Of a DNA stretch of 64,000 bases, positions 3,020 to 64,000 are shown piece by piece; position 1 is the stretch's first letter; each line of letters starts with the position of its first letter. The notes below the pieces were generated by a model. The model made no database searches. It saw only the letters and a list, made by a program, of their open reading frames with translations, and had not been told where the DNA came from. The DNA is from Ruditapes philippinarum (lineage: Eukaryota). The stretch covers positions 62,001 through 126,000 of the forward strand of contig NW_026861848.1 in NCBI RefSeq assembly GCF_026571515.1. The letters run 5' to 3'. A program made the translations under genes and the position numbers.

Positions 3020-4871
3020 CTAATTCCTTGAAAAATACTGTGCAAGGGCAGCGATAACAGTTTCTAATGTTATTTTAGTATTAGTTACTCGTGGCTGACC
3101 GTCACAGTTCTTCATCACGAAAATGTTCCGAAGACCATCTTCGCCTTGGCGCTTAAAGATGCACCTTAGATGTTGTAGGTTTAAGCCGGATGCAGCAATA
3201 TTCTCGGCTGTAGTTAACTTACACACACTATTATAAATCAATACTCTAAGTGACGGCAAATTCTTTGCTTTTTCCCGACTGCACAACTGAGAATTGTACA
3301 CAGATTTTGCTGAAAATGTGTGTGGCAGCAGATCAACAGATAATATGTCCAAGTGGTGAATAAGTTTACCAAGAATCGAGACATCTTCGGAAGCATTATG
3401 AGCACAGTATGAAGCTCCCAATAGATCTTTTGCAAGGTCTTCCTGTTTGTAAGACTTCCTGTTTGGGTATGCTTTTCTAAATATAGACAGTGAATCCGCG
3501 CATCCAGCAACACACTTACACATTCTGTCCCTCAATCCTACAGTGTCACATGCCGTCAACAAAACAGGAAAGTCAAATCTTCTGCCATTATGCGCAACCA
3601 ATACAACATTCTGAAATTTTTCTAACCAATCACAATATGATTTCAAAGCTTCATATATGGAATAAGCCTCTACATTAGTTCCATTGTACTGCATCTTGTG
3701 ATCCACCATTCTTAGGCCGGTCACTTCTTATGCCTTGTCAGATATGGGCAATGTAAGTAGAACATACATATTGAAAGCTTTTCCACTTTTAGGTTCTGTG
3801 GCAGCAACCTGGGTAATATGTGGGATCTGGCCATCGTGTACTGAAACAAACAACACAATTATTTATAAATAAATAATTTTGAGCTGTTTTATGTGCTCTT
3901 ATAATAATCTGAGATCTTATTCTAATTCAGCTTGTTCCAAATAATGATAAACCATTCCTGATATATTGCATTTTTTTTTACAATTATATTTTAAGAGACG
4001 ACTAATCACTCAACCTAGTATTGAAGGACGATAATCTAAAATGAAAGCAACTGTGTTACAGTTTTCACATGATATATATCAACAAATTCGCAATACAGGT
4101 CTACTTACTAAGGCCAGTTGTCTCCAGGTCAAAAGCAATGTATGTAGGCTGTCCTTTTGGCAGCGCTATAGGTTTGAAGTCACCACGAGGGACTGGATCT
4201 GGCAGCTTTTGGATGTCAGCATTATCTGAATGCCCGATCTCTTAAATACAAATATATAGATTAGAATATAACCTATAAAAGGAAACGAAAGGTAATTTGC
4301 AAACTTTGTTTTAGTAATGTTTATAGTTACAAGCTTCTAATGATGTTCGAAGAAGGAAAAGTAGAAGGAAAACACCAGTACCTGCAAGACTGGCAGTATT
4401 TTGTCAAAATACATGTATATGAGCTGTGTCACGACAAAACCAACATAATGGGTTTGCGACCAGCATGGATCCTGACCAGCCCATGCTGTTTGCCATCAGT
4501 TTCTCTACTTGTAATAGAGTTGGAAAGCGAACAGCATGGATCCTGATCAGACTGCATGGATGCGCAGGCTGATCTGGATCCATGCTAGTCGCAAACCCAT
4601 TATGTTGGTTTTGTCGTGACACGGCTCATATGTTTGTTGTGTAAGTAGAAAAAACACAGCACAAATCACTTTATCTACCTGACTGATAGGACATGCCTTC
4701 AAGAGCTTCTTGAGCACCTTGTGTTATTGACAGCTCTTGTTTTAGTTGTAGTCGCCGCCGCTTAGTCGATGGCAGTGCCGATCTTTCCTGGACACGCTTC
4801 CTTTGCTTCTGGCATTTATCTGCATATCTGAGGCTGCGGACACCAGGGGAAAGACCTGCCTCGGAGTGTAC
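3020..4871 (-). pseudogene. Spliced transposon-borne ORF, 5'-truncated: transposase-like C-terminal tail fused to a DEDDh (DnaQ-like) 3'-5' exonuclease and a PML-C/Exuperantia-like helical domain; one in-frame stop
   Basis: Three phase-compatible GT-AG exons. Exon 4871-4679: VHSEAGLSPG...KRRRLQLK...EGMSYQS. Exon 4240-4109: ...TYIAFDLETTGL. Exon 3840-3020: HDGQIPHITQVAA...ISDKA*EVTGL...AHNGRRFDFPVL...AHNASEDV...IAASGLNLQHLRCIFKRQGEDGL. ExoI (DLE), ExoII (HN..FD) and ExoIII (H...D) motifs are all present. TAA at 3730-3728 interrupts the frame. No further upstream exon found. Confidence 0.85.
4417..4631. mobile_element. Palindromic MITE, internally deleted copy, inside an intron of the exonuclease ORF
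   Basis: Long terminal inverted repeats atatgagctgtgtcacgacaaaaccaacataatgggtttgcgaccagcatggatcc ... ggatccatgctagtcgcaaacccattatgttggttttgtcgtgacacggctcatat; second copy at 41424-41666. Confidence 0.9.
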
Positions 4872-10674: not shown

Positions 10675-12649
10675 CTCGCGACGTCTATGCTTACCATTAC
10701 TTTCAGATAATATAAGGCAAAAGTATCGATCTCTTTGAGGGATAGCAGGAAATATCTTATTGCTAAAAAAAACTAAACCTCTAAGAAAAGATTTTCTCAC
10801 AAAAATGTTTGAAAAGATAATTACAGTCATGCAACATCTCATTAAATTTTCATCAATTTTTGAATTTTTTTTCTTCATTTTTATACCGACTTTTCTTGAT
10901 CTGGCAGTTTGCAATAATATATGAATGTGACGAAAGGGACCATTAGATGTATTGGTTAAAACGAAACCGACTTGGACAGATATGTTTGGTAGAAGTAATA
11001 AATAAATAGCTTTTATACAATTTTCAACTTCTTTGCATGACTATTTTGAGTGTTATATGACCATCTTTCCGGTTAGTTACATAGTGTTTCAAGCCAGCTT
11101 CAAGCTACAATCTTATTATTGAAATTGAAATTTGGAAATGTCGAAACTTTAAATCAATTTACAAAAACGTAAATACGTTCTTTCGTTTTAAGAGGTGCTT
11201 TCTAAAAGTAGCCACGAGTGAGAATACTGTTTTTAAAGTTCACGAGATGAAATAAAATTACATCTCACACAACAAACAAACAAATTTTCTTTTTGTTTTA
11301 TGCTTAAAAACAAGTTAAAACGAAACTTAAGTTAATATTAAAATCTGTTTTCCCAATTTAGAGCCTCAAAAAAGTCGAATTTCTCATTAAATACAAGAAG
11401 TCATGGGCTAAAAAATAAGTTCCACAATCAACGTTAAATGGTGGTGATAGTATTCATCTTATTAAAAAATATGTCTTATCGCTTGTTTAAATAATAAAAA
11501 CAAACAATTCTAGTAGGAGAAAAAGTCCAACCATCCATCCATATTTCTGTTACTGACTGCGAATTTATATTAGTCCTGGCTATGTTAAACGTAAGCGGCC
11601 GCCATTTTTAAAGTTGTGTATTTCACTGGATGAAAATAATTGTGTCTGATTCAGGGGGATATCATTTGGATTTGTTAGTCATACACCTATTTAAAAGAAA
11701 GAAAACTTATTTGAGGATTGTAACAGACAATAAATAAGTGTTTACAGATGTGTAAACATTCAAAAAAGTGGAAAGTAAATTGGAAAACTTGGGAGCCTTA
11801 CGAACGCTGGGTTGTTTTACATATTCTTCGACTGAAAGCTGCCATTGGTTTTTTAAGGTTTTCATAAAGCATACGGCAGTTTTTGCTCGTAGGATACTTA
11901 AATATTCCCAAATGTCGTCAAGAGCAGTTTTGCATGTGGAAGGAATGTATTTTTTAGACTGTAAAAATGAAACCAAAAAAATAAAGAGACGATATTTGGT
12001 GATTGGTAATTTGAATGAATAGAAGTAAGTTACTGTAAGTTTTCTTCTTTTTATTACTTTTTACATATAAGTTATTTATCAGTTTCAGGTTTGCTTTTCT
12101 TTAAACAGCCTGACATTGTCGGAATAGTCACCAAAAATAAAATTGAGGTACCACATGGGGAAAAACTTAAAAAAGTAGTTTCGTCATTGAAAAGTGTGAA
12201 ATTATATTTTGATAATTTTCACTGTGAGATTATCAAATATACTTTTCAAGGATAAATCAGTAATCCACTGAAAAGCATAAAACAAATTCCTTTAATCTCA
12301 TTATTTACAAATCTTTTAACTTTATTCTATCATTATGGACTGATATCATGTTATTAATGTCCATTCGTTATGTTGCAAATGCATGTTTTATAAAGGGGGG
12401 ATTCTGAACATTGTAATTTATAAGAAAGTGAATAGTATTTATTGCCTTATGGCAAAAGGGTATAACTCTGACTCTGTGCCTGTCAAAACTGAACGTGCAA
12501 GTCAATGTTCAAATGGCATATCGCAGCTCTTTATATATAATTATCTCTCTTTATATTGTTAAAAAAGTGGTTTCAGTTTGATATACTTAATGTACTGAAA
12601 GAACAAATTGCCGGTATAAAACGACTATGTCAAGCGAAATTACGCTGAC

Positions 12650-13940
12650 AAATTCCTTGGTTTGGGGCTTTGGGTCTTATATTGTGCAAAGAACATTCTT
12701 CAAACTGATACAAAAACGAATCTGCAAACTAAACTAATGTATTCAAGGTTAGCTCGAAAAATGGTGTCTTTTACGAACATTGATACACTTTATATACAAA
12801 TGAAAAAATAGCCCGTACACAAAATGACAAAGCCACGCGGAAACCTCATGGGCATATTGCTTTAAATAGGACTTTGGGTCTTGAATTTTGCTAAGAATAC
12901 CCTCAAAACTGACACAAAAACAAATTTTCAAAGACATAAGACAAATGATATTTTCATGATTGGTTCGATAATATGGTTTTTATTGCGAACATTGATGACT
13001 TTTACATATAACAAATGGCCTGTACGAAGAACACGGCCACGCCAAGAGGAAATCCCTCAGACACATTCCTTGGGTTAAGGGCTTATGGCCTTATACTGTG
13101 CAAAGAAGACTCTCCAAACTGATACAAATTAAATGGTTTCCTGCGGGGAACATTTTAATGATATAAAGATTTTTCATTTAACTAACTATTTTCAACATTA
13201 TTTGGGGGGGGGGGTTAAATAAACGTTTTTTTATCAGGAATATAGTTGACAATAATCGATCAATATAGAAGAAGGGTTTTGGAAACAGGTGACTGTTGAA
13301 GACCGGAGAAGGTCCAACATAAAACAATTATTTCTTTTTAAGAAAATGATTAAATAGGCCTACCATTTTATGAATAATTCCGAGCAAAAAAAAAATAAAT
13401 AAAGTAAACACACAAGTTTACGGAGAAAATATCTCTACTTATTGTGGCAGATGCCTCTACGAATATTTTAATTTTGTAGATTTTCAGTATAAACAATTTA
13501 TTGTTTGTAAAATTTGAGATAGATATTAATGAAACATTGATAGTTTTCAAACACATCATTCAAGTTTTTCCACCTTAAACGGTAACATAATTATAGAAAA
13601 TTAGAAATATCATGTAATAGTTTTTTGTTTTCAATTAGGTATAATTCGGACTAATTCCCTACAAGTAAATCCGTAACGTACCGGCAAACAGTATTAGCTG
13701 GGTTTACGAAAAGGTCGATTAACCAATCATATACGGTTGATAGATCACATGCTCCTCCATGTACCGATAACAGGTCACGTGCTCCTCCATGCCTCAAAAG
13801 TTAAACGCATACCAATACCCTGCGGTCTCCAGACCGCAGGGAATAAAACAAATCTGCAAAGCAATTAGACACATAATCTATTCAAGGTTAGCTCGAGGAA
13901 ATGTTTTCTTTTACGAAACTTGATACACTTTAAATACAGA
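12650..13940. repeat. Degenerate ~205-bp tandem repeat (about 3 units), third unit split by an insertion
   Basis: The motif ctt(t/a)gg..ttatattgtgcaaagaa..ctcaaactgatacaaaaac.aat recurs near 12668, 12872 and 13082. The block ttcaaggttagctcga..tcttttacgaa.c.ttgatacacttta occurs at ~12742 and again at ~13881. Confidence 0.75.
13128..13846 (-). mobile_element. Helentron-associated non-autonomous element (HINE/DINE-like)
   Basis: Cleanly interrupts a satellite unit (caaactgatacaaa|aacaaatctgcaaa) in an A/T run with no TSD. Terminal hairpin ccctgcggtc-tcca-gaccgcaggg at 13818-13841, matching sub-terminal cctgcgg near 13140, and an internal ~30-bp tandem at 13743-13790. Confidence 0.65.
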
Positions 13941-16204
13941 AAGAACAACTCATCTGTTCAATATTCAATATCTTAAGATGATATGTAACATTATGTGTTT
14001 CCATAAAATTTTAATGTTATCAATTAAACCTGTGATCATAAAACTGCTTTTCATTGATATCAATATTGTCAATAAAGTGTTAAATAATTTTGTAGATTTA
14101 AATAGATAAAGGTAATTTTAATAAAGATTATATCGATATTTTCTGTTATAATATAACGTTTTGTTGTCATTGTATACTAAAATGATACTTGTATCCAATA
14201 GACTTCTGCGGCGAGTTCGATATATATTATCGTTTAGATTATCTATCTAAATGTATTTGAAAAATCATTCAACATCCATTACCAACTACATGATATTTAT
14301 TTTATTATCGCAAGTCATTTATAATAGTCTCAATGTATGACTTTATCATAAAGGCATGCATTACTTTGGCATCTAGCACTGTAAAATGCAGTTATATAAG
14401 TTCGAAGAAATAATAGTATAAGTAACATGAATTGTATGATTTATTAAACTGAATGTTTAATTGAGAATATAATCATCCTAAATGCGGAATGTAACTGTTG
14501 AATACAACAATCGTCAGCTGAAGGAATTTCCACTTAAAAATGACTTATTTTACTCCCTGATTATATGCAGATACATTACACCTACGCCCTCATAAAATAT
14601 ACGCATCGTATAATCGTGTATTTTCAACATTGTACTTTTAAATTAACAATGTATCTTAATTCTATAGGCGTCATATTGAATTTTAACAATACATCTTTAC
14701 ATCTTAAAAATGTTTAATTTCATATCAATCAGCAAAACGAACAAAAGCAAACATTCATCATTGTTATTATGGTAAACAATTATAAATCTGACATTTGTTT
14801 AGTAATAAAATTACAATAGATAACCTTTCATTCTATAAACATGAGTTTAATTGTAATCATTATACGGCCTCCTTTCCACGATTTAATACAATCTATTTTA
14901 TATGTCTTTCAAAATGATGTTTTTTTCTTAATGCAAGCTTAATCATTACAGATTAATATCCATTCAAGATGTTAACTTTACGATCTGTTATATATCTTTA
15001 AGTTAAAAATGAAGAAATAAACATATCCATATTTACATCAAATAGCTAAAAACATACACGTAAACGCGAAATGAATATTCGCAAAAGGAAAAATTTCTTA
15101 TTTGTTAATTTTCAAATGGCAATATTTATGCTAAATCATTCCATCTCGCTGGCTTAATACAGGAAAATAAAAGTCGGCTATGTCGCATTTAGGTTTAAAA
15201 AGAAATTACCTAACATATATTGATAAAAAGTTTTACTTAAAAGACCGCAGTCATATTATATTTCATTACATTCGTCTCACCTTAATGTTCTTCCTCATTT
15301 CTCAACAGAGGAAGTTCAACATTTTCAAATGACTGTTAACGAAACAGTTTCTAGATATTTTAATATATATTATTTCTACATCGTTCTAATTATACTTAAA
15401 TGAAAACATTTTTACAGATCTTATCTAGTCCAACATCTTTGTCATTAATAATTTGTCAATTTTCTGCTTTTTCCAACAAAATCATAATAGCATAGAAGAC
15501 GGAAGTTTGTTTTTTAAATTTGAATAGATGAGACCGCTGACTTCGAACCACCTTCCTCTTGTGATTTGTAATATTGAATCTAAAAAGCCTATGGAAGTTC
15601 AGTGGTTCTACAAAGGTGTCGAGGTGACTAAGAATTTAACAAAAATGTATAAAATCAGTTTTGTTAAAATCATGAAGATATAAGTTGTTGATTATTTTAA
15701 AATTTAGATTGTATTGATACAATGCAAAATTATAAATATCATGAATAAGGTATTGAAAATAAACGATCAGAGTATTGTAAAAAAGATAACTTCGAAACAG
15801 AGAAAAAAATATAATAAAATATAAAAAATATATCGAGTGTAATGGGAGCAGTAGGCTTCGTTCAGTGTTTTATTGCTTTTTTGATAATTTTAAAAGCGTG
15901 AAACCATACAAGAATTATATTCATCCTAATTGACGTTTCATCTTTGATTTGCGTGTCAATGTAAAGGGTTTCCGATTAAACAGAAACGAAATACGAGATA
16001 AAATTTCAGTACAGAAGGCAAGCAAACAAATATGCAGACGTAATATTTTAACCGATATACTGTCTTATTGGGTTTTGTTGTTCCTATATTTGTATTGTCC
16101 TGTACCAATCAGATCGTTATTCCTGCTATTTTATAAACAATTCACCACATCTAATAAAATCAGCGAGTGGTATGGCTCGTATTTCACTGCTATGTATCCT
16201 TGTT

Positions 16205-16931
16205 AAATTCTGGAAACAAAGTGATCCCTCGGAAGCATTAATCACAACAAAATAACATAAGAATTGCAGACTCGGTTTGATTGAGTCTGTACATGAGGGA
16301 TAATGAATAAGTGCAACATCCCTCACGCCCCCTAGCAGCGGCTTGAGCGGTACTCAATTCTCAACACTTTATAGTGTTGGCATCAATGACCCCGAAGGAC
16401 CAGAAAATTATTACAGTACTGAAGTGAAGTACGGGCAACTTTTTACGGCTGCCCACACGGCACTTGACACCTGCTGTTGTGAAGTACAAAATTCTGGAAA
16501 CAAAGTGATCCCTCGGAAGCATTAATCACAACAAAATAACATAAGAATTGCAGACTCGGTTTGATTGAGTCTGTACATGAGGGATAATGAATAAGTGCAA
16601 CATCCCTCACGCCCCCTAGCACCGGCTTGAGCGGTACTCAATTCTCAACACTTTATAGTGTTGGCATCAATGACCCCGAAGGACCAGAAAATATAACAAC
16701 ACTGAAGTGAAGTACGGGGCAACTTTTTACGGCTGCCACACGGCACTTGACACCTGCTGTTGTGAAGTACAAAATTCTGGAAACAAAGTGATCCCCCGGA
16801 AGCATTAATCACAACAAAATAACATAAGAATTGCAGACTCGGTTTGATTGAGTCTGTACATGAGGGATAATGAATAAGTGCAACATCCCTCACGCCCCCT
16901 AGCACCGGCTTGAGCGGTACTCAATTCTCAA
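16205..16931. repeat. Tandem array of about 2.6 near-identical 283/284-bp units of an unclassified hairpin-rich repeat
   Basis: Units begin aaattctggaaacaaagtgatccc at 16205, 16489 and 16772; the third unit is truncated at 16931. Confidence 0.95.
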
Positions 16932-16978
16932 TTTCAAAGCCAGTTTTTCATGTGACAAAGTATTAACTTATCTAATTA

Positions 16979-17292
16979 CTATGGTGACTGGTTTATGTCA
17001 TGAAGAACTTTCAACCGAGCTACAGAGCAAAAGTTAGACAAATTGGTAACGCATTGTCTTCGTCCTGCGCCCTGCAGTCAACGTTTTTAGTGATTTCGCT
17101 TTGCGCCCCTGAAGCAAAAGGCAAATACACGAAAATTCAAAATGATCACTTTGTCGTTTGTTTGTGTTTTTACCTGGCGCCCCGCGAGGCGAAAGTACGA
17201 CAATCGGTCGCTTTGTCGTATTGTCCGTATTTTCGTGTTTCGTCTGGCGCCGCGCAAAGTAAAAGTACGATAGGGTACAAATTACCCTCCAT
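16979..17292. mobile_element. Probable degenerate MITE with internal repeats
   Basis: GC-richer patch bounded by tatgg...ctccat, with repeated ctggcgcc..gcga/aaagtacga and ctttgtcgt motifs. Confidence 0.4.
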
Positions 17293-20540: not shown

Positions 20541-22210
20541 AGCTATAACTTAATTTTGAAATTACGTTTCACTTAATAAAATTTAAACTGCATTACGTAA
20601 TAAAATAGTCAAAAAGACAAAAACAACTTCAAACATTTATCAGCTGTAGAACAGATAAACAACAAATACAATTATAGTGAATTAGTATTTTGTATTGAAG
20701 ATAAAATACTACTTTGTTGACATTTTACAACATGTATGACAAATTAGATTACATTTATAGCAACTTTCTTCTGGTAACAAATATATAACATTCTGTTAAA
20801 GCAATATTCAAATGTTGTAAAATTCATATTTGCCCTTGTATAAAGAAGTTAGAAAAAACCTTTTTTAAGTAAATAACATGTGTTGGATATGTTGATATTG
20901 ATAAGCAATTATAGTCTGATGTTGTTGTTGGTGGTGTTGGTGTTGGTGTTGTTGCAATAGACAGAGACTGGAAACCAAATTGAAAAACATGTTGACAAAC
21001 TTTAACAGTCAAATACAAACAGAAGTGTTGCACATTAGGCAATAATCTTTTTAGATTACGAATATAAAGAATCAAAACCCTTTGCCTTGGTTATCAATTA
21101 AACAAAGACTAAAAACTAAATAAAAAATTGAAAGCCAAATGCTTAAGCCTTTACTACAATGTACATTAAATAAGATTAAGCAAAATAAATTGTTCTTCTT
21201 GCAATTGGATTTTAAATGATAAAATGCAAGTACATGTATATAAATGCCTGGTTGTTCGTAATATTTGCATTTAATTTTGAATAATGTTTTATACATTAAG
21301 TTTTTGTTTGCTTTATAGTAAGCGTGAAAAAAATGTGGTCACGTTTTCTGGGAGATTGCAGTCATGCTTTCCGTGAGAAACTATTGAAAAGACAACTCAA
21401 CTTAAGCCTTTAAATGGAAGTTTTGACATTTTTTGTGTGCTTTTTTAGAATTAAGCAGATGATATAACGCATGTTAGCAAAACTATTATATTCTTACGTT
21501 TGTTCATATTATTGCGTCTAACATTGGATGTCTAGAGAAATGGTATCGTTGTATAAAAGGTTATTTGTATACTAAATCATATGTTAGGTCTCCCGCAATT
21601 TTTTATATGGTAACATTATGTATAACACATTCTCCCATTTCGCTGCATCATTGCAGGTTTAACTAAAGTTCATTAAATTCTGACTACCAAAAGAAGATAC
21701 TCGAGATCATTTTTTATACATAAATCAAGTTTGCTTAGTATACATTTTGTTATTTCATGATAAATTGCTCATTTGGACTTACAATATCGATGATATATAG
21801 CTGTGTGATATTTGAAAAGATGTCTTATCATCATAAGTTTGTTAAGCTTGACATATTCATTAATACCATAAACCTTCCTAAGTTTATAAATAGTATAAGG
21901 AATCGATATATTAAGTAACAAATTGCTAAATATAAGTTTGACTGTCTTTTCATTCTCTTAGAAAATGCAATACCGCCGGCAAAATAACAAGATAAACTAT
22001 TAACACATCATTTTTATATGCAATTAATTAGTATTTACCTATAAGAAAAGCGCATATAACTGAAATACAAACATAAAGATAATCTAATTTTAAAAAACGA
22101 TTATACAATTCTTGAACTACGACCTTGACATCATATAATTATGCTGTTTTTGGTTTCTATGGGTGAATATTTTAGAATAAATTATCCTTTACCTTACATA
22201 AGGTTAAACT
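20541..22210 (+). repeat. Old segmental duplication, copy 1 (paralogous to 25644-26965)
   Basis: Collinear similar blocks at 20541/25644, 21322/26103, 21560/26340, 21800/26595 and ~22198/26953. Confidence 0.8.
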
Positions 22211-25200
22211 TAGTATGTCATTGTTAAATTAGATCAATTTTAATCTAAGTAATTTATTATTATGAAAGATAATAAGAAAATGTGTTTAACTAACTTATTG
22301 TTATTTTGATTATATACTTACTATTAGTATGATGCGGAATGAAACACCAAAATACGAATACCGGCAGCAGAAAATGAGTAAAATAGCGTTAGTGAAATCC
22401 TTTTCAGTTTTTTCTTGATTATTTTAGAACCGAATATGTCGTTCCTTATTTCTCTCTATTTTATTGATGCTTATAGACTTAATAACTTATATTGCCATTT
22501 AAATGCAAAGACAAATGAACCACTCAGACTTGCGGGGTCAATTCTTTAACATCAAAACGCCTTATAGATGTTAAATAGTCAACTACCACCAGACATACCG
22601 TTATTATAATTATTTCTCAAATATTACAGATTTTAATTGTCTTATTTCTATGGCAGTTTTTTATTATTTTTGAGTCAATCTTTAATTATTTAGTCCATAC
22701 AATTATAATATCATACTTACACTACCCCTCACGATATTATTGAATCTAAAATAAAGAAAGACAAGTTAATGAGGAGGGACAAAATAGTAATGTGTATGTT
22801 TAAGTGAGTGTTATTAAAAACAGAATTACATTGGGATGAGATAATATAACTTCTTAAATGAGTATCATAGTTCAAATTAAAACAAAACTGTCTTGTTATA
22901 ATTATCATTGATTATATTTAATAAGCTTTTTTTGTATTTGCATGTGATTATGATAGCGAGTATCAAAATTGAAATTAACCTAATGTCATATTTTGCATAT
23001 AACTACTTATATGAACATATTAATTATTTAAAATTATTTTGTATGAAGCAATTAGACGCATTGTATAATCAATGATTTCATTTAATGATTTAAGGTATAC
23101 ACAAACCTATACTATCAGCACAAAACATTTTCAATTAAGGCATTTTGTAAGTTATAAATTTTGGAATAATTAAGGCATACTTTTTTGATAAGGCAACTTA
23201 AATGTCAACCGACTCATTAATAAGGTAAAAATAATTGAACATATTTTGTAGTGGAAATAAATTTGCTCTATTATTTACAGGATGTATAAGATTCATTATC
23301 TCTAACGAAAAAGATTATTAAACGATTATTGTGAGCAAAATAAAAAATAGTCAACTAGTTTACTTTTTATGATACAGTTAATTAAATTTCTCGATTTTGT
23401 AACAGAACGATGGAATGGCATTAGAAAAAAAAATCTGAAGTCGTAAGTATTTGAATATTGAAAATAAACAATCAGTCCCTGGCTGGTATATATTACACGC
23501 TTTATGTCACTGATCACATCCATTTCATTACACAGTTTTCATAATTTGTATAATATAATTATTATAGATATTTCTGTGTTTGAAGCTTGTAGGACTGTTG
23601 TTGGTTTATTTTATTCAGTTTATTTTACTGTACAGAGGAAATCATTTTATGTTGTAAGGAAATGAACACAAATGCCATTTGATTAAATATGGTTGTGACA
23701 AGAAACCAAAATTTTTAAAATGAGGAACAGAAAACTAATTAATTTTGTTACACAAGAATGGTCTAATGCTGAAAAGATTTTCATTGCAATGAAAACAATT
23801 CAAATGTATCTAGCTTTTAGAAGGACACTAACATCTGAGAAATCATAAAGAGGTTAAATCCAAATGAAAATAACACTGTATTATAATGACTTTCTAGTCG
23901 TTATTTGGCAAAGAAAAGTCAATTTAGGTGAGCCATTCATTATTATGCGGATTCTAATATCAAATACAGCAAAGTTAACAAGCAACTTGAGAAAATCAGT
24001 ATTTTTACCTAATTTTCTAAAAGAAAATGTGATCAGCCAATTGTCTTATACAGTCTCTATCACCGAGGTGAATCATCATATAAGGTAATTTTGTTTTCCT
24101 GACGGTTTTGATAGGCCACATATTTTAAACAAAGTGTCACTTTGACGTTGATATTTGACGAGTGACACAAATACTGACCAGACTATACGAACAGGACATA
24201 CAGAGCAACACTATCTGGTATTTTCTCACTTGTTTCAGTTGGGGCCAATATAAAGAAGTATTTATAGTAATATATTACAAATGAAACTGACATTGCTGCT
24301 GTACCATTTTCCGTAATGAATAAATAATAAATCGATTTCAACATAAACAGATGTGGAAATCTATGTACCCTTGCTTCAATTTGACGAATGCATTGTTATC
24401 TGCGTTAATGCTTATTTTAAGACTACGTAGTAGTGTTTGTTACAAATCAAAGTTTAATTGGCTGAATACCCACGTATAAATTGATTGTTTAATTAGCATT
24501 AGTTAAAGTTGATATAAATTGGTATTTCCTTGTTTTCCTTTACATGTATTTTTAAAAGCATTGACATTCTATCGGATTCTCTCACGACTGCTTTGATATT
24601 TAAGCAATATAGTAAATGTGATATAATAAAGAAAAGGTGTCTGAAAGTAGTACCAAGTAAATGTCAGACTACTTCATTTCTATTATCCTTGACAGGAAAC
24701 CCCAATCTAGATATATAATGATAAATTATGTAAATGTTGTTTTAAGAAAGGTATTTTTAAAATCATTACTTTATGTTGGATCAAGTATGCTATTTACAAC
24801 CCTTTTAGGCGTTTTCTAAATATTTATAAAACTAGTTTTGTATTTAAATCTTACCTCATTTGTTCCACACATTGGCTTCATTGTTTGTTTTCTTTTATTG
24901 ATTGCAATATTGTATTTTAATGATTACTTCCGGAGGATCTTTTCTTTGCGTCAAACTTTTTTACTTTCTGAGCAATATTAAGACTCGGTACATATCTCAA
25001 TCACGGTAAGAAATATCACTTTATTTCAAATTGAAAATAACAAACATGTTTTTCACTTAAAAACAAACATTGAAAATGGTACTAAAACCAATGAAACTAG
25101 GTATATCTCGACCGTGAGATATTCAGACATTCATTTTGTTTCGTTTAAATGTGCCTTATTTTTTCAACAAAGTGATGTAAATTGATCTTGTTATTTAAAT

Positions 25201-25643: not shown

Positions 25644-26965
25644 GCTGTAACTTAATTCTTAAATTACGTTTTCACTAAATGAAAGTTTAAATTGCATCTT
25701 GGTATGAACTAAATAAAAAGGCAATGCAACTGAGTCTAATGATTATTTGTCTGTCACTGTTGATTAAAAAAAGTATTTTGGTAAATGCGGAGGAAATGGT
25801 AATTACTATTAGTTGTTTAGGAAAGCCGGTACACCGGGCCAACCGATGAGATATGACCAACACGTGTCAACATCGGCGTCAAAACCAGACAAATAAACAA
25901 AGAAACCGGGATAAAAATGTCCCATTTAGTTCGTATTTGGATTGTTTTATTTCTGTAATTTCTGAGTAGACCTTGGTCTATATCACAATGTATACGTATT
26001 GCTCTTAGATTTTATAATGATGCTAAATAGGCCGTGTCCTTTATTCGTTACATTTGTTAGCTTAATTGCAATATGTTGTTTTATATAAATCCATTAAGGT
26101 AGGCGTAAAAAGTGTGAGTTAACGTTTTCTAGACGTTTGCGGTCATGCTTTCTAGGGGAAACTTAAATAATACGACAGAGAACAATTTGTCCCAAAACTA
26201 AATACAGACGAATAGCGAAATAAAATAAAAATCGGATAATATTCTATTCCCATCAACTAAGGTTATTCTATATAGAGTATTGCCTTCTTTCTTTGATATA
26301 AAGCTAAGACACCTTCGTTTAAATAAAAAGATATAATAAGTTATTTGTATACTAACTCATATGTCAGATATCCTGGTGTTGAAATACATGTACATGGAAA
26401 CATGTTTATAACACATTTTCCCATTTCGCGGCATTGCAGTTTTAATACAAACTTTAAATTTAAAGTCTGACTACATTAAAAGAAGATACTCTCGATCAAA
26501 TTGTCAAAATGATTTAAGTTGTTCTGATATGCATCATGGCGCTATGCATATTAGAAATTTTTGTTCAGTTAAAACTAAAATATCCATGATGTACAGCTGT
26601 GTGACATTTGAAAAGAAATCGTACCATCATACGTTTATTAAGCTTGACATTATAAGTACCATAAACCTTACAGTTTTACAAGATATCGATGGTATAAGTA
26701 TATATCCCATTAGAAAAATTCCAACACATGGTGTATTAATTACTTAATAAGTTATTATCCAGTATTGGTCATATTCAAGCTGTTCGTCTCAACGTTCAAA
26801 GAAAATGGGAACAAAGCATTTGCATCAAGATGATAACATTCTTGAATCAATAGATATGTGACACTGACACATTATGATTGATGGCATTAATGCGGTTTAT
26901 GGTTTTTATAAATAATAAAGGATATCTTAGGATGCACGTATACCTTATTTTTATAAGGTTAAACA
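25644..26965 (+). repeat. Old segmental duplication, copy 2
   Basis: For example gttatttgtatactaa.tcatatgt, tataacacatt.tcccatttcgc, ctgactac..aaaagaagatactc and gctgtgtga.atttgaaaaga..ttaagcttgacat are shared with 21560-21880. Confidence 0.8.
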
Positions 26966-28268: not shown

Positions 28269-31200
28269 CTAGATATATGGTGAGGTGAAATCCGGCGCAT
28301 AATACACGGCGTTATATGGTGTCTTATTTGAACTGTAGTAAGGTCTTGGTATGTTCAGATTCGAGATGGATGACCTGAAAAGACAATATATAAATTAAAA
28401 TCTTCACACTAGTACGAGCAGTTTCCATTTCGGATTAACTCCGTAAACATTTTGACTTAGTACAATCGATTATTTTATATACAATTACATAATTTCAAAG
28501 ATAATTTGTCTATAATGGAAGGTCTGTAATTATACAATGAATAATTACGTTAAAAGTACTTTTGGTATAAGACATATCAACAAACCACGAAAAAATTGTT
28601 GGCAGTTTGTGTGATATACCTGATCTGATATTTCATTTATCCATATAAAAGATATATGTTCTAGAACAAAATATAATTATTCATCCTAAAATGTGCATAA
28701 TCTATATTACTTAGGACTTTATCAACAATTTTGTTTCAAACAACTTTTTATCAAAATATATAAAATTGATACATTTCTTTTGTTTTTATAAATATTTAAT
28801 AAGAAAAACAATATGGAAAACGTTCCCTTTTAAGATCTATCCACTTTAACATATAATTTGACATCATGTTTACATATGAATATAAAGATAAAGCTATATG
28901 ATTATGGACACAGAAGCAGACAATTAGATAAAGGTAAATGACTATTAAGACGGAAGTAAACAATTACTTACAGATATTTGATTATCTACACGAAACTATT
29001 TATCAAACCTTTAGCGCAGCACTATACATCAAGTTTTATAAATTAAATTTAGAAATGTTTACACGGAAGCAGCAGACAATTAGCGGTAAATAATTGCCAT
29101 CCAGCACGAACCTAGATATAAATCAACAAACACATTATCAACACGAAACTGAATACGAAGACAATCAAAACATGCTTGAACACGAAGAATCTAAATGTAT
29201 ATTGCTATCAACATGGAACTGAATACAAAACTACAAGTATATTTCTATCACGGAATCAAACACGAAGCTACAGCAATATGACTATCAACGTGGAACCGAT
29301 CAGCACATATTTGACTATCGAGAGGGAAAGGGGCATTTTATTGTATTTATTATTGTATCATAGTTTGGAGACTTTATTATTGAAAATATGTCAGAGCTAA
29401 ATCGTATACCAAAGAATGTGCAGTGTGTTTACATCATCGCACTCACTGTCACTTAAAAAATCATATTAAAGTGCTCGTGCATTGGTTACTTATTTCTTGG
29501 GTTTAACAATGTTAAAACAGGGAACGTGTTTGCCTATAAGTAAAAGACGAAAGAACATCAAAACACTAGGCAATCTGGTTGATAATCGAGGGCTACGCCT
29601 CCTTGACCAAATCAGATAGCCTCGTGTTTCGATGCTCTTTCTTTTACATGCAGAGAACTTGACTTCAGTGTTGTTATATTTTCTGGTCCTTCGGGATCAT
29701 TGATGCCAACACTATAAAGTGGTGTGAATTGAGTACCGCTCAAGCCGGTGCTAGGGGGCGTGAGGGATGTTGCACTTATTCATTATCCCTCATGTACAGA
29801 CTCAATCAAACCGAGTCTGCAATTCTTATGTTATGTTATTTTCGAGGGATCACTTTGTTTCCAGAATTTTGATGTAATTGTCAATAAACAATAAGAAGCA
29901 GGAGTATAGTATATTATATAGATAAGTCACATAAATACCTTCTTCTCCACAGGTACCGGTCTCTTCTGATGTCTCGACTAAAAAAAAATAATTATAGTAG
30001 TAATTTTCACATATAAATATGATTCTTTTTCATTTTCAATTTGAGTGTAAGGACGATAGGAAAACGGACTCATTTTTTATAGTTAAAAAGTTCATATAAA
30101 TTGGTGGCTTAAAACTAACTGTTATGTTGCATCTTTGAAAGTGTCCTTGGGGCAAGTATTCACTTATGCATTTCAGTTTTGTTCTAAATCAGATGTAAAA
30201 ATGGTAAAATAACTATTAGATTAAACCTAAAAGTCATACATATGTTTGTCTTCATCCCCTTCGGTGTTCTGAGTTTCATATTGCTTTTCGTCATCTAAGT
30301 CGTTAAGTGAATACGCCTGTCGCATATGGTCAACGTCGGTCCTAAATCTATTAAATTTACTCCGGGTGTGACGTTTATCTTCCCTTTGTTGATAACGGTG
30401 ATCATAGTAACCCTGATGCTGACCTTGACCATCATCACGTAGCTAAAAAATGAAGATTGTTATTATAGTTAAAATTAATGGAAATAATGTCTGAAAATAG
30501 ATATAAATGTTTACAGTATATCTTGTACAAACACAGTCAATAGATCCACTTGCTTTGAAATGCTTTGAAATGTAATATGCAAAACGGGTAAGAGGAGATG
30601 GGGTGTCATGTGTGCATGTTTCTGCTCTTTTGCAATCGGAGCTAAGATGTTTGCAACACTATGCGTTCGATGCATTGCAAAATGTTCATTTCTGTTAGAA
30701 ACAAGTTTATTATTTCTTTCTACAATCTATAAGCGCCGTTCGAAAACATACTGTTTTGTTTGTTTGTATCATTTTACGCCTTTTTCCAACAGTATTTCAG
30801 TCATATAGGCGGGTAGTTTCCTAACCATCGTTCCTGGAGAGTTAGACCAGTACTTGACTACCTTCCTCCGCGCTAAACTACCAAAGCATCTCCCGGGGAT
30901 CGAACCCACGCCAGAGAGGTAACTGGATTAGAAGTCATCGACTCTAACCACTCGACCACGGAGGCGGTTCGAAAACATACACCATTTAAATACCGTATCT
31001 GATGAAAGCAACATAAGAGAAAAGTTACAACGTTGTTTGGTTTTGTTTGTGATGAACTAACACTACCTGGTTGTTATATTCCTCTGTATTATTTTCATAA
31101 TATCTGTATCTGTCTGGGTAATCATGAAAATGTCTTGTCTCATTCATGTTATGTCTCGGGTTATTGTCGTCTACTTTCCTTGATAAACTAAACAATAAGT

Positions 31201-34200: not shown

Positions 34201-35282
34201 TATTTCATTTACATGTATAAGTAATGTATAAAATATTATAATAAATGTAATTGTTAGACAGTTTAAATACTTTTACAATAGGGGTCTGCAGACCAGTGTC
34301 CACTTTGCATGCACGTGACGCTTGATGGTCCCACTAGCGTCAGACCTGGTTGACACCGGACAGTTACAACTGTGCCGACACTTCGTGAGTATGTGTTAAC
34401 TATAAGATATTTCAACATATCAACTGTAATCACTGGTGGATTTGGTGGCAGCTCTGTTAGTGAGGGGCATTCTATAATAAAAGACATTAACAATATAATT
34501 ATAGTTTCTTATTACTAAGGAACAAACGCAAATGTTCTCACTAAGTTGAAATGGACGCTGATCATATATCGATGATGATCAATTATTGAGTATTTTTTCA
34601 TTACATTGATAGAAAATATACATATAGTTCGAGATATGAGAGTGAGATTAATTGTCTTATATTAATACAATTTTCCCATAATATAACATTGCGGTTACAC
34701 ATACAAAGCAATAAGCCTAAGAGCTGAGGGACATTTAACCAATTAACAAAAATCTAAATCTTACAAATTTTGCTTTCACAACGCTTCAGAATCCAAGATG
34801 GCGTTCAATATGGTCGTCGATTTTATGCGAACGGGTATATCTTATTATGGTAGAGTTTTCATCAAGAAATATGCCGTTTTCAGTAAAAAAAGTTAAAAAA
34901 ACATTTCGGAAATGATCAAATTATAATTAGATAACAATGAAATACATAGCTGTTTATGTTTTTATCTTAATGTTTTTATACGGTTACATAAAAATAACAA
35001 AGATAAGCTACTAAAATTCCAATAGTGTTTGTTTGTTTCTCATAAATACTATGTGCAATTTAATTTCAAACTTGCTGAAATGAAAGAAATGCATGCATGT
35101 AATTATAATTATGTCAATTGAGAATGCGTCAGTGAATACATCTGTACATACAAATTTTGAAAAAAAGTAATTAAAAGTAATAACTTCGAATATATAGAAT
35201 TTAAATTAACTAAGTTAGTTATGAGACCGGTATTTTAAAAGAATATTGTCTCACGGGAGGAAACGTTTTCTATACCTGTCAT
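28269..35282 (-). CDS. Sushi/CCP-domain single-pass membrane protein without signal peptide (SUSD3-like architecture), ~297 aa, 8 coding exons
   Basis: Exons 35282-35276, 34471-34271, 33418-33256 (or -33250), 32027-31974, 31187-31067, 30442-30240, 29977-29939 and 28374-28269; all GT-AG and phase-consistent (894 nt). Sushi: CPSL...GTVVTVRCQPGLTLVGPSSVTCMQSGHWSADPYC. TM: ILIIVLGVVGFLVAALIIFVCVALYC followed by a basic stop-transfer GRRGNKK. An in-frame TAA lies upstream of ACC-ATG. Confidence 0.88.
29541..29646. repeat. Imperfect long palindrome (MITE core)
   Basis: gaaagaacatcaaaacactaggcaatctggtt pairs with aatcagatagcctcgtgtttcgatgctctttc; loop contains gagggctacgcctcc. Confidence 0.7.
29657..29870 (-). 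repeat. Dispersed inverted copy of the 283-bp repeat unit, in intron 7 of the sushi gene
   Basis: Near-identical reverse complement of ~16488-16712 with a short internal deletion; ends at the same ccagaatttt boundary as the array. Confidence 0.95.
30752..30966 (-). mobile_element. tRNA-derived SINE with 14-bp target-site duplication
   Basis: Minus strand: A box TGGTCGAGTGG, B box GGTTCGATCCC, tail tgactgaaatactgttggaaaaaggcgtaaa plus (CAAA)n. Perfect TSD gttcgaaaacatac at 30738-30751 and 30967-30980. Confidence 0.92.
33790..34230. mobile_element. Probable non-autonomous element with central palindrome and internal repeats
   Basis: Palindrome tttcactgcagtgaaa flanked by repeated cagtgaaaatacggaaaat; boundaries approximate. 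Confidence 0.35.
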
Positions 35283-40900: not shown

Positions 40901-41423
40901 GCTTCGATACTTATCAAACTTGGCACAAAGTTAACGTTGACTGGACCATTGACTTTGTTACAACTTGCTCAGTTAAAATTTCCTGCTATCATGACAACGA
41001 GGGGACATCTCAAAATTGCCAAAAGTCACTATTTTGCGTTGATTTTTTCCATCAAAATTTATTTCAAAGCGCTGCAACTTCTCAATATATTAAAATAGAG
41101 ACAAAGGTTTTTTAGCGTTACCTTATGATCGATCTTGGGTCATTTTTATCCTCTCACAAGTCCAATTTTTTCTTTGCACATTTCCCTTCTGGCAACCACC
41201 TCATGTATCTTTTAAGTAGGGGCGCGCCGAAAAAGTGGTCATTTTTAAACAACATTTCTCAAACAAAAACAAAATCCTAAATAAGAGATTTTACGCACCA
41301 TTTGAGACAACAACAAATAGATGAAAAAGGTGTTAAAAGGCGTAAATATTAAGTTATTGGTTAACAGAAAATAAAAGAAATACAAGAAATTACCATTTTT
41401 TCCATGTTTAAACATAGCCCAAC

Positions 41424-41666
41424 AATTGAGCCGCGTCACGACAAAACAAACATAATGAATTTGCAACCAGCATGGATCCAGACCAGCCTGCGCGTCCGCG
41501 CAGTCTGATCAGGATCCATGCTGTTCGCTTACCAACCCTATTACAAGTAGAGAAACTGATAGCGAACAGTATGGATCCTGATCAGACTGCGCGGATGCAC
41601 AGTCTGGTCTAGATCCATGCTGGTCGCAAACGCACTATGTTGGTTTTGTCGTGACACAGCTCAAAT
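41424..41666. mobile_element. Palindromic MITE (same family as 4417-4631, opposite orientation)
   Basis: TIRs gagccgcgtcacgacaaaac...gttttgtcgtgacacagctc with nested ggatccagaccag/ctgatcaggatcc repeats. Confidence 0.9.
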
Positions 41667-41755
41667 GAATTTGAAGAAAATTGTTGTTTTGTAGATTTTT
41701 TTTAATTCTTTATGATTTCCTTCTTATACCTATTTGTTTAGAGAACTAGGCTATA

Positions 41756-47700: not shown

Positions 47701-50700
47701 ATATTGTCATATTTGGCAAGGAAGTGCAGCTGCCTCAAAAGGTAACAAACTTTACCAAAATGAATATGTATTTAAAAATACCTTCGTATAGTTCCGATTG
47801 CCTTACACAATTTCTTAGAGTTTTTGGGGGAAATGCGCAGGTAATGAATCAGCGTAATCCATCTTTTCTTCCATCTAGCTTGATTCATATATAACAGCCA
47901 GTTGATCAGGTTGATTTTAATAGACATGACTGAATGTTATAGTCACATAATACATTTATTCATACACAATGTTTAATACAATATGTCTACAACAATCGGA
48001 CCCACTACATGTTATATATGGATCATATACAATCATGAATAAGGAAATTACGGAGTGTACTTGGTCGAATGGTTAATGTTTTTTCTTTAAAGCTAATGGC
48101 CCTAACCGCTGTGTATACGAATCCGACATGGACTTCAGATTCGTTAGGTGATGTAACTAGCGTATGGAATGTCGCCGCTTTTACTCAGGTGCCCATTCAT
48201 TCAAAAAACGGGAAAAAATGACCTTTATGTGTTGGTACTGTGTAAAATCTTGTCCCGAGATCATGTGTTAAGTAATTTCAATCGAATCCAACTTACGTTT
48301 TCGAATTGTTAACCCTTTCTTTTATAACGAGTGTCATATTCTTAATCTATTAATGGACGGTTATTTATTTTCACATATTTAAGCAGGCAGGAAAGAAATT
48401 AAATACTGTCACTTTCTGCAGTTCCATTTCTGAGTTATGATACATTTTAGCCTATTGCAGATGTGATGTATTGCCAAAGAAAGAAGTTCAATCAACCAAA
48501 TCCTGCAGTATTTTCAAATTTGTCGTTTTGGGCGTTCTAAAGGGATTTTAGTTTTTCTCTTTTTTACAAATGTACAATTTGAAATGTATTTCTTTTTTAA
48601 TGTAATCTTAAGGTTAAGCTGGAAAAGGAAAATATCTCTTAAAATCAGTGAAAGTAAATGCATAAAAGTTGATTGAAGTTGAAGAATGAAAAGATATTAA
48701 TTTAAAGTTTTTAAACAATCTTCATGAAACCATGCCTGTAAAATTTTCCATTTTACCGCAAATTACGTACTTATAGGATTCTGATTCTGTTTTTTGTTTG
48801 TTTGTTTTTTTTTTCGATTTTAGTTATTGCCCTGTAACTTCGGACATTTTTCAGAAATATATGTTTTACTTCAAATTTAGATTTTTTTTTGATATATTTC
48901 AAAACTTTTACATGAATGGATAACATGCATAATGACGGAATAATGGTATTTAAATGCTATCGTCATTCCTGTACATTGTGTGTGTTGAGTATTGGTCCTG
49001 TAATATTCTATTTATATTTTGTACTGTGAAACGAAAATGTTGGTTCGGCAAATTATTCGTTCTTCTAGGGTCCAAGTAAACTTTACAATTAACTAAATGT
49101 TAATTGATCTATAAATCATTAATCGTATCCAAAAAGGTAAATACAAATGATAAAAGTATTTGTTTTCATATAATGAAAACAATTCCCAAATACTGTTATT
49201 AATGAAATAAATTTTGTAAATTTCCGCGAAAGAATTAATAGAAACCTAAAGTTTTGAATATTTCTCTGTATAATTAATTCCAAAATTTATCATAAAAAAG
49301 TTTAATTTCCTTCAAAGCACCATAAGACTAGTAAAAAGTTTATTTTTGTAAAAGGATGTTTAGTTCTTCCACTAGTGTATGATAAACCCCTATTGTATCA
49401 TATTTTGCCACCCACGTTCGAAATTAATTTCTGTCTCTTAAAGTATGAGCTCCCTAAGGACACTATAAGGAACTATAAAATTGACAACATAGGTCTAATA
49501 TATACCTTAAAGGACACCTGTATGCAAAATTTAAAGAAAGTTTACCATATGGTTAACGAGTTATGGTATTTTTTCTTACTTGAAACTTAGCTACAAGAAG
49601 GGCTCTTTTTCAGAAAGGAGAAACTCTCAGTAATCTATCATAATTATAATCAATATGAAAAATATTTTCCATTTGATTATTGTTAAAAAACAAATAATAG
49701 CATTCAACTAACAAATTACACAAGAAAAATTAGTGTTTCTACACAAAATGTTTGAAATATGTATACAAGTGTTACCCTACCCCACCAATTTTAAACCCTT
49801 GGTTGACAATTTCCTTCTTGGAGGACCTTAATAGCCTTAAAATTTATCAAATTGAGGGACTGTTTTCAAAGTTTGCCTATTTTTTTTTAAAGTATACTGT
49901 TTGAGCTTGTCAAATATAAAATACTGTTACCGTCTAATTTTTTATATAATTAGAGTTTGAAAATATCAGGTATCATATATGTTGATAAATTTGGCATAAT
50001 TTAGCCATAAAATATCAATAATAATTTTATAATTAAAATGAAACACTCTTTTCTTACCAAGAGTGACCCAAGAGACACAACAAATGTTGAAAGAAAAAAA
50101 TAGAAAGAAAATAAAAGTTGCCTCTACCCGCGCCCCTCAGCTTTAATGCAGTTGACACAAGTTCTAGCCTATTTGAATACTCTTCAAAGTGGAGGTAATG
50201 CATTAGGTGGGTCATACCTTAAATGATCCCCTTATTTTGCCATTAGAAAGAATTATTATTCTTTTGCATATACCATTTATAAACTTATCTAATTCCTGTA
50301 AGGAATCTGTTCGGAAAGAAATGAATCAGAGGGATAGTTTCTATAAATGTTGTACATATATATTGTCCATTATCTATGTTGGTCATAAAACCCTGTTGTC
50401 TGTTTGGGCTTGAATATTTCCTTCAGGTAAATCTTGACACGTTTTAGACAATATGTAGAATATATTATATAAATCCCTTTTATATTATAATAATAAAGTA
50501 GTATTAAACAAATAACACTAATCAACCATCTTCTTTAAATGTTCTGCAACATTTTGTTGCAACTTTCCTAAACCAGATGCTGTGAGAATAGTAATAAACG
50601 GTTGCCGAAACAAACTTGCTTATATTTGTTAAATGGTGCAATAATCTTTACATTTAATCTAATAACAATTGTTGAAATTTCAGAAATAAATGTTGTTTAG

Positions 50701-55591: not shown

Positions 55592-55800
55592 GTGTAACCC
55601 ATCTTAAATTTGCGTCAACCTTACACAAATAGGCAAGATTGACGAGACAAGTATGTCTATTTTGTCTAACAGCAAAATAAAGAGCCCTTGTCCAAAAGAG
55701 AGAGCAAGAGTGTAACCAATCTTATATTTGAATCAGCCTTACACAAAAAGACAAGATTGACGAGACTGGTATGTCTATTTCGTCTGACAGTGAAGTAATG
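55592..55800 (+). repeat. Diverged ~118-bp tandem duplication
   Basis: gtgtaacc.atctta.atttg..tca.ccttacacaaa..caagattgacgagac..gtatgtctattt at 55592 and 55710. Confidence 0.85.
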
Positions 55801-62080: not shown

Positions 62081-64000
62081 TGAGGAATGTACATGCGTTA
62101 TTTCTTACTTTTAACAATTTGCACAGCTGAATTTCTTAAATTTACTTTTTTAAATATCATAAAAGTGCATTTCTATAATATCTTTATGAGTAATAAGAAT
62201 AGAGATAGATAATATAAAAAGTTCAAGAACTAATCATAAATTTTAAACATTTCGGATAACACTTAGCGGGTAATGCACATAATAGGTTTCCATGAAATAC
62301 CAAGGAGGTTTAAAAACTTAATGTTCTGGTATCAGTAGTAAATCAAGATAAAGTTATAGTTTTTAGGTACAAATGTTAAGTGTTAATGTCAAGTTTTTAA
62401 TAAACGTGAATCTGTTCACGCTTTTTCTTGATTTATTTCGTTTCAACACCTTATAAAGTACAAGTGTCTTACAGGCAGATATACAATGTTTATCATAAAG
62501 ATGCTTTTGAAACAAGTATGTTTTAATAGGAAAAAACGTCATAAATAAATATAAATCGTGCAATAAAATTTGAAATAATATTGTATACCAAATCAAGAGG
62601 TTCGCATGTGACGTCGAATACACCAAGTCAGCACATTTTAGATAAAAACTAAATAACTGTATACAATAAAAATCAATTTAATTCAGAAATACTGTCCTCT
62701 TAGATAACGTTCTATTTTAGAATAAATGAGCTTATTATAGTGGGTTTGTTATTGGAATCGAATTAAATACAACTTGAATAATTTTGACAAAGTTATGACA
62801 ATTATATTTGAAACATTAACTATTGTATCAATATATTTATACTATTTAAATACATTTATTTTTTCTGACGTGTCTTTTAAAAAGAAATATTTGATCGACT
62901 TGATCAAAGCAAACCAGTCAACTTTCTTACGCTTTTCGACCATAATATCCTTTGCTTAAACGAGATTTTCGAACTATCATTCCAGACAAAAGCATAAGCC
63001 AAAGATATATTTATTATATGTTCGCCAAATGTTTCAACTACAAACAAATCAGTCAGTATATGTTTCTTTGTGTTGAAATAGAGAAAAACAGAATCCCTAA
63101 AGAAAGCCCAACACGGCAAAATTTTAAATGTTGCAGGCTCGGTTTGATTGAGCCAGTTCATGGACAGTACTGGAAAGTGCAAGTTATTTTATTTTTGTGG
63201 AGTAGGGAATTGGCTGCAGCATTTGCTGATAATTTCATAATCAAAAAAGCAATAAACCTTCAAATGACGTCATATTCGCAAGTGTTAAGCTTTATTAAAC
63301 CAGTTATGTTTTTACAAAACAAAATAAAACACAAAATAAAAGAAAAAAAGAAAACTTTAATGAAAGAATAAAGATTTATACTGCACTTTATCGTGCATTA
63401 GCATATGCATAAGCTCTCGTACTTTTATCAAATTCCGTAACCATGCCGGGTTGGGTGCGTCTTTGTACTACTGCATATGTTTATGCACGAAAACGGTACA
63501 TTAACCTTCTATTGTTAGAGTAACAACTGTTCAATGTGCAGGTAAAATTTCTTAACCTCCAAAGGTCATTGATACTGAAGGAGATGTACATTTTACATTT
63601 TAAATCCATGTAGTCTAATAGATTCATAGTCGAAGGTCGAAAGGGAGGACCAACAAAATGTATGTCAGTATTTTTGTCTTCTCTATGTGTTATTTATCTC
63701 TCTGAGTAAAGTTAAGTGTGCTCCGTGTATACTTTAAACTGTTAAGGTACGACACTGGAGCCCGTATCTATCCTAAACAAAACTGATAATATGGAAATAT
63801 GTGACAAATTTAACGATAAAGAAGACATCGATTGAGCAAAGTGATCAATTGAAAGGACATTGTCAACGTTATCACAAGGGTTATGAATGTAAGATTAGTG
63901 GGGCAAAATAATCATGTTTTATGTTTTTATCCTTTATCATTACAGAGTTTATTGCTGTTGATACCAGTGCAACTGCCATTTTCTGTAAGGACATAACAAT

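Follow-up and report, generated by a model that had tools for sequence, protein, structure and literature searches.

The family closest to the element described here is biv-TRIM, a bivalve repeat published as a miniature LTR retrotransposon and cited as one of few animal TRIMs, with a TDR of 202-218 bp and an inner domain of 77-80 bp. It is reported at 27,489 loci of median length 126 bp (0.26%) in Ruditapes philippinarum, in tandem arrays, and in TSA transcripts (PMC6934838; here and below, statements on published systems refer to those parts of each source that were accessible). By its authors' account it has neither a canonical PBS nor an autonomous partner; the text states that canonical copies were seen, and its accessible parts hold no claim of a TSD or of TG...CA termini (PMC6934838). 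The Helenus TRIMs of bivalves are likewise short non-autonomous repeats with a direct-repeat layout, but in the accessible account they carry a tRNA-like LTR, a PBS, a PPT and 4-bp TSDs (PMC10886601), none of which was found in biv-TRIM here apart from a PPT-like 7-mer. Two systems of other kinds are also relevant. Penelope-like elements (PLEs) yield 5′-truncated partial tandems; one group of them, the Naiads, has no hammerheads and is abundant in bivalves, and MRC1, a non-autonomous element of Chlamys, was at first mistaken for an LTR element (PMC8557442). Animal non-LTR retrozymes are self-paired, non-coding monomers of 170-400 nt that occur in short tandems; they are present in mussels, and a PLE has been proposed as their mobiliser (PMC7229834).

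The window analysed here, a stretch of 64,000 nucleotides of Ruditapes philippinarum DNA taken as a whole, holds a tandem array of 2.6 copies (period 284, 98% matches by TRF), whose first two units are identical at 278 of 282 aligned bases, and an inverted solo copy that matches the unit at 207 of 214 aligned bases (Table 1). The first-pass annotation had described this layout, and its description held: array and solo copy share the start aaattctgg between unrelated flanks and differ at the other end (unit position 161 in the array, about 226 in the solo copy), and a 9-bp direct repeat, gtgaagtac, lies at 16707-16715 and 16762-16770, around a linker that the solo copy lacks. Where that annotation called the unit unclassified, we can now give it a name, since primer sites, inner motif and period all match biv-TRIM (PMC6934838), and on these sequence grounds the 283-base repeat is biv-TRIM. 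The published reverse-primer site matches at 19 of 20 positions in three places and 18 of 20 in a fourth, against no match in 100 shuffles; of the forward primer's first 16 nt, 14 match at one site, in unit 2; and the inner motif is found at three sites with 12-13 of 14 positions alike, and exactly in read variants. The period of 283-284 fits the published TDR plus inner domain, a PPT-like site and the end of unit 3 divide the element into about 208 + 76 bp, and the latter end coincides with that of the published TDR. Tandem and solo forms and fragmentary abundance are further points of agreement.

The sequence family itself is therefore not new. What the present analysis adds is a boundary about 48 bp inside the published TDR, the probable assignment of the RNA to the opposite strand, a rod-plus-cloverleaf fold that covaries, and a sister subfamily without the published primer sites and inner motif, and these together argue against an LTR element. 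No reclassification of biv-TRIM was found in the literature searched, where one further paper uses the name and merely cites the family; one may exist in other papers, in Repbase or in Dfam.

Table 1. Copies and parts of the element in the window. For copies, rod, core and linker the strand is that of the putative RNA.
Feature	Position	Strand	Remarks
Unit 1, full	16205..16487	-	left edge 16205 is the fixed end, the putative RNA 3′ end
Unit 2, full, 283 bp	16488..16770	-	holds the one forward-primer match
Unit 3, partial	16771..16931	-	unit positions 1-161; putative 5′-truncated last copy
Long rod, 3′ arm on the putative RNA	16488..16550	-	pairs with 16639-16692
Conserved four-way-junction core, unit 2	16543..16646	-	closing helix and three hairpins; 32 pairs, 9 changed on both sides
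Long rod, 5′ arm	16639..16692	-	contains the published inner-domain motif, 16671-16684, with 2 mismatches
Linker hairpin, including the gtgaagtac direct repeat	16695..16770	-	PPT-like 7-mer at 16716; published forward-primer site 16726-16741
Span matching the published TDR, about 208 bp	16723..16930	+	probable bounds, from primer and PPT positions
Solo copy, inverted relative to the array	29657..29870	+	unit positions 1-226; 12-bp deletion; no linker
Older truncated copy	48434..48563	+	same fixed end as the array
Possible very decayed copy	48676..48793	+	weak, E 0.004 with rough calibration
Old truncated sister-subfamily copy	63075..63194	-	same fixed end as the array

Besides the array and the solo copy, a profile and a covariance model located two old copies in the window plus a weak third one, the last about 230 bp from the copy at 48434-48563 and in the same orientation, and one metagenome scan supplied five loci, L001-L005. 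L002 and L003 represent the same insertion site with two copies in each, and these copies form the sister subfamily (about 74% alike across unit positions 60-155), to which the old copies in the window are nearer than to the array. Among nine loci with a visible left end (the array, the solo copy, the two old window copies, L001, L002a/L003a, L002b/L003b, L004, which is the most degenerate, and L005), a small sample in which every locus was picked through the core, the element starts at one and the same AAA in every case. Comparison of the 60 bp upstream shows no relationship between the loci (3 of 45 pairs reach p<=0.05, with differing offsets), and in none of the nine does this flank contain the linker. 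The fixed end thus lies about 48 bp inside the published TDR, and not one of the nine loci begins with the first 48 bp of that repeat. The right ends, by comparison, vary: the seven loci that show one stop at about 95-110, 115, 140, 160, 161, at least 200, and 226, and the two that stop near 160, the published TDR end, hint at a second preferred boundary. Insertion junctions are AT-rich, the fixed site would be U-rich on a minus-strand RNA, and a T-run is present on one side of the element only. A check for a 4-6-bp duplication at two loci was in line with the earlier observation that no TSD is evident, the longest shared word being 3 nt at the array; for the solo copy, two candidate ends share nothing and a third shares 4 nt. 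At L002/L003:850-905, an inverted copy of about 55 bp of the fixed end abuts the main copy at its truncated end. Inverted end pieces of this kind are PLE-like; this one is known from a single locus and looks more diverged than a copy from the same event would. It may also represent a separate insertion or a TIR.

The scans elsewhere yielded chance matches. Three scans of viral contig collections gave 0, 1 and 0 loci, the single match (L006) being due to chance, and two scans of prokaryote genomes gave 0 and 4, all four dropped as chance since no more than 23 nt fitted the model in three of them and none did in the fourth (L008). Adjoining the element at L001:170-590 (+) is a broken, Cys/His-rich reading frame with no Pfam match, which we take to recall Crypton-associated proteins.

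Folding of the unit exceeds chance on both strands, with z of -6.05 for minus and -3.21 for plus and none of 200 shuffles as good on either. On the minus strand, the predicted structure is a long rod capped by a four-way junction. The suggestion that gaattg/caattc closes a multibranch fold proved sound, for this helix closes a covarying core: in a 13-row minus-strand alignment, 91.9% of 308 cells are paired, compared with 31-37% in slid-partner controls. Five of the pairs changed on both sides fall in the middle hairpin and two in the closing helix; the number of such pairs by itself does not exceed a shuffle control (169/500), and the covariation comes from essentially two lineages. The 32-pair structure leans towards certain sequences because it was defined from single-sequence folds of them, and RNAalifold, run on the same alignment, recovered one hairpin of 6 pairs because most rows are truncated. 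The loops are nearly invariant, notably AAUCAAACC. The chain of hairpins read in the first-pass annotation survives as a real covarying structure with several of its links redrawn. The caacact/agtgttg hairpin has weak support (79% of 34 cells paired) and, together with the cTTCGg hairpin, is absorbed into the long rod in the minus-strand MFE, whereas accg/cggt does pair, as the inner part of a 7-bp minus-strand helix.

The rod also bears on the strand of the RNA. In the two subfamilies, whose rod arms are only about half identical, the duplex has 41 and 42 pairs on the minus strand, 5 and 6 of them G-U, as against 35 and 34 on the plus strand, with 0 and 1 G-U. Eleven of the 12 rod wobbles thus fall on the minus strand (p 0.006 if independent). 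With DNA parameters the minus-strand advantage of the rod is smaller, and reversed for L003b, and deamination or selection acting on a single-stranded DNA form of the minus strand could also produce the bias. Independently of each other, the wobbles and the fixed end both indicate that the RNA is the minus strand and that its 3′ end lies at the U-rich fixed site, as is expected when target-primed reverse transcription leaves copies truncated at the 5′ end.

One fixed end, a ragged other end and a predicted, conserved minus-strand fold make it more plausible that biv-TRIM is a structured RNA pasted into the genome by a reverse transcriptase. We favour, with modest confidence, the reading that the family moves as a non-coding, structured minus-strand RNA carried by a Penelope-type reverse transcriptase (RT) and not as an LTR element, and its published classification is probably wrong. 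Partial tandems, the lack of a TSD, AT-rich junctions and the one adjacent inverted end piece favour a PLE RT over that of a LINE. Host read-through transcription of dispersed and tandem copies would supply the RNA; the RT would bind rod and core and start at the U-rich fixed site, with nicked AT-rich target DNA as primer. Copying would then run towards the RNA 5′ end, where drop-off at variable points could leave truncated solo copies, while on array transcripts, or by template jumps, the RT might run on into the next units to give 1.x- to 2.x-mers with the same fixed end. A PLE such as Naiad is the leading candidate for the RT, and a LINE is a less likely one. Neither a ribozyme nor a circle would be required. 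The first-pass annotation had offered a Penelope-type repeat as one of several options, and this is the one that we retain, along with its view of a mobile unit with one fixed end and partial multimers; the need for the circular or rolling template that it suggested is not supported, because a PLE RT starts internally at AT-rich cuts in vitro and does so without hammerhead cleavage, and such internal initiation on tandem transcripts suffices for a fixed end and multimers (PMC11167929, accessible part).

The comparison with non-autonomous PLEs (MRC1/Chlamys and Naiad 3′ ends) is close in several respects. Like them, as far as the accessible part of that source describes, biv-TRIM has a fixed 3′ end (nine of nine loci), 5′ truncation (variable across seven loci, with the strand taken from the wobbles), partial tandems that mimic LTRs, no canonical hammerhead and a high copy number in bivalves (PMC8557442). 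The pseudo-LTR layout is present in the array and in junction-spanning reads and contigs. In contrast to these elements, no microsatellite target bias was seen here, nor, in the nine flanks, the 30-40-bp tail that is an optional feature of PLEs. A rod-plus-junction fold is not described for PLEs in the accessible part of PMC8557442. No autonomous partner was found: 125 open reading frames, from the window and L001-L005 taken together, gave no RT, GIY-YIG, helicase or recombinase family, and 10 exact words compared with part of the line-wrapped Naiad/Chlamys supplement (PMC8557442) gave no relevant match. Exact core words likewise had no relevant match in the accessible supplements on Helenus (PMC10886601), bivalve SINEs (PMC11481361) and KolobokP (PMC9587614), and a full-text search for core words returned only unrelated plant papers. 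If the boundary and strand proposed here are true, biv-TRIM is a non-LTR passenger RNA and its TRIM entry needs correcting, and its short, high-copy, covarying motif offers a test of how hammerhead-less Penelope elements pick their templates. A bolder proposition, which we consider unlikely, is that biv-TRIM represents the first hammerhead-free retrozyme-like family, at about 10^4 copies per genome across bivalves, and that the cloverleaf-capped rod is an undescribed motif, either a new ribozyme or a template signal for a Naiad RT; the core is a cheap candidate for a cleavage assay.

The abundance of the element was assessed by comparing reads and contigs from four sequencing runs with the stretch 16648-17250. 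One run (X1) placed 22,919 contigs on this stretch and another (X22) 98,722 of 12,895,792 reads, with a core depth that exceeds the average over nine flank bins about 14,000-fold, a ratio that serves as a rough copy number; the copy number is roughly 10^4. Run X22 is labelled as transcriptomic RNA-Seq, yet its best-supported loose ends are GATC-GATC joins at both GATC sites, and X1 behaves likewise. These joins presumably represent a proximity-ligation pattern, and X22 is probably proximity-ligation DNA; because of them its depth is biased and of no use for expression. In the DNA reads the unit-to-unit junction is well covered, and the left/right asymmetry at a nearby GATC site gives a rough estimate of about 0.3 for the fraction of fixed ends that follow on another unit. 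Beside the array, the stretch 17040-17280 is GC-richer and contains short repeated words, and a slight rise in depth at 17150-17215 suggests another low-copy repeat.

RNA data bear on a different proposal, that of a retrozyme-like circle, in which the conserved core would act as a new ribozyme that cuts tandem transcripts into 283-nt monomers, which are then circularised and copied by a rolling RT. Its size and its tandem-plus-dispersed layout match those of animal retrozymes in the accessible account (PMC7229834), a minus-strand circle is predicted to be 70% paired, the loop and junction letters are conserved while the helices covary, and six of the 20 listed runs that carry the element are RNA, as small assemblies. 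Such assemblies were not counted as expression, since contigs show neither level nor strand, and one of them (X15) was compared. In the true RNA run (X24), 1,322 of 7,369,024 reads match, a share of 0.018% as opposed to 0.77% in the DNA-like run and hence 43-fold lower. These reads are split evenly between the strands, which does not single out the minus strand, and their identity is mostly 85-95%; 86% of them continue into unlike sequence, coverage falls from 566 in the core to 53 at the unit junction, and among the best-supported positions no site gathers many read ends. The picture resembles that of copies carried within host transcripts and gives no sign of the abundant circular RNA of animal retrozymes, although library selection may lose small circles. 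A circle by itself, moreover, does not yield one fixed end. We regard this proposal as quite unlikely.

Searches for known ribozymes point the same way. Comparison with Rfam, which the first-pass annotation had put forward as a check, gave no match at E<=10 on the array, none at the gathering score in the window, and five on four relatives, all below threshold. The CUGANGA hammerhead core reported missing from the unit is indeed absent on both strands, and unlike the published retrozymes (PMC7229834, as far as accessible), the element has no type I hammerhead; pistol, hairpin and HDV motifs were likewise absent in Rfam and regular-expression scans. The sole match of the latter was a non-conserved, twister-like word. 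The loose resemblance to twister noted earlier dissolves on comparison, as AAGC becomes AACC or AACT in the sister subfamily and Rfam gives no match. Likenesses to 7SK/U3, hatchet, hairpin and HDV motifs and to a tRNA D-arm were set aside as not conserved in both subfamilies or without Rfam support. The most conserved hairpin, at 16550-16580, extends on the plus strand to about 12 pairs with G-U, and we take it to recall, loosely, a tRNA D-arm; a tRNA origin for it has no ARAGORN or Rfam support. In seven copies ARAGORN called no tRNA at thresholds of 100 and 90 and made inconsistent calls only below them, and with no credible tRNA there or in Rfam a tRNA-derived SINE was rejected.

That biv-TRIM is a genuine TRIM, perhaps self-primed, has to our mind little probability. 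Plus-strand RNA would start from the AAA, its 5′ end would pair with the inner domain, and arrays and solo copies would arise by TDR recombination. As a rule, LTRs have TG...CA termini. Here TG is missing both at the published TDR start and at the true start, and CA is present at the end of unit 3 only (16929-16930), at about the point where L001 also ends. The sequence that follows the TDR end, from 16647, does not begin with the TGG of a PBS, and GGGGCAA at 16716 matches the published PPT 7-mer at 5 of 7 positions, as do many other words in the unit. The plus-strand arm duplex is beyond chance too (z -5.2 and -3.0), and the published classification itself speaks for a TRIM (PMC6934838); against it stand the variable right ends, the missing 4-6-bp TSD, the nine loci of which none has the TDR start, and the same report's lack of a canonical PBS or partner. 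Among the clones of its Table S3, an intact TDR start is present in none of 20 taken as primer-independent, an assignment made by clone name and by counts of 8/9/3, of which 14 are 5′-truncated, one is truncated on an unstated side and five start in the inner domain, though AluI digestion may explain part of the truncations (PMC6934838, accessible part). The complete elements in that table are among the clones taken as PCR products, and the primers would amplify within arrays too.

A rolling-circle DNA element of the Helentron or HINE kind would account for the fixed end by a nick at the AAA, for the ragged end by variable termination and for the multimers by read-through, with the fold forming on single-stranded DNA. 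The single fixed end, its T-run on one strand, the missing TSD and the tandem copies fit this scheme, the arm duplex is stable with DNA parameters too, and HINEs occur in molluscs and enter T-rich sites without modifying the target (PMC4067079, accessible part). HINEs have defined boundaries (PMC4067079), whereas the second end here shows no pair of subTIRs with a 3′ palindrome and T-runs are not on both sides; conservation, furthermore, centres on a junction inside the element, 55-160 bp away from the end, while the subfamilies differ at about half of the terminal arm. We consider a rolling-circle origin improbable. The weakest of the alternatives derives the unit from the split repeats of an Ngaro/DIRS-type retroelement with a tyrosine recombinase. 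Such elements integrate via a DNA circle, which should leave both ends precise. This origin is very doubtful, since the right ends vary and neither an A-B-A-B split arrangement nor a partner open reading frame was found, even though the lack of a TSD and the AT-rich junctions would suit it and in cockle neoplasias DIRS-type elements are stacked head to tail (PMC11126487, accessible part).

The remainder of the window contains features of other kinds. A 235-aa open frame at 3020-3727 (-) encodes an exonuclease domain and PML_C (E 7.8e-16) and has many bivalve relatives, the nearest named ones being clam, oyster and scallop proteins (best 58%). A Sushi-domain exon lies at 34266-34508 (-), and the solo copy may lie in or near that gene. 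Other repeats include a MITE-like, self-complementary sequence of about 245 bp in two copies at 79% identity (4417-4634 and 41421-41667), two other dispersed repeats, each a pair of 330-380-bp copies that are about 73% identical (4-375 with 24697-25075, and 21552-21876 with 26332-26669), and decayed tandem regions at 12578-13128 and 13845-13948, and at 55585-55798, with periods of about 200 and 118 bp.
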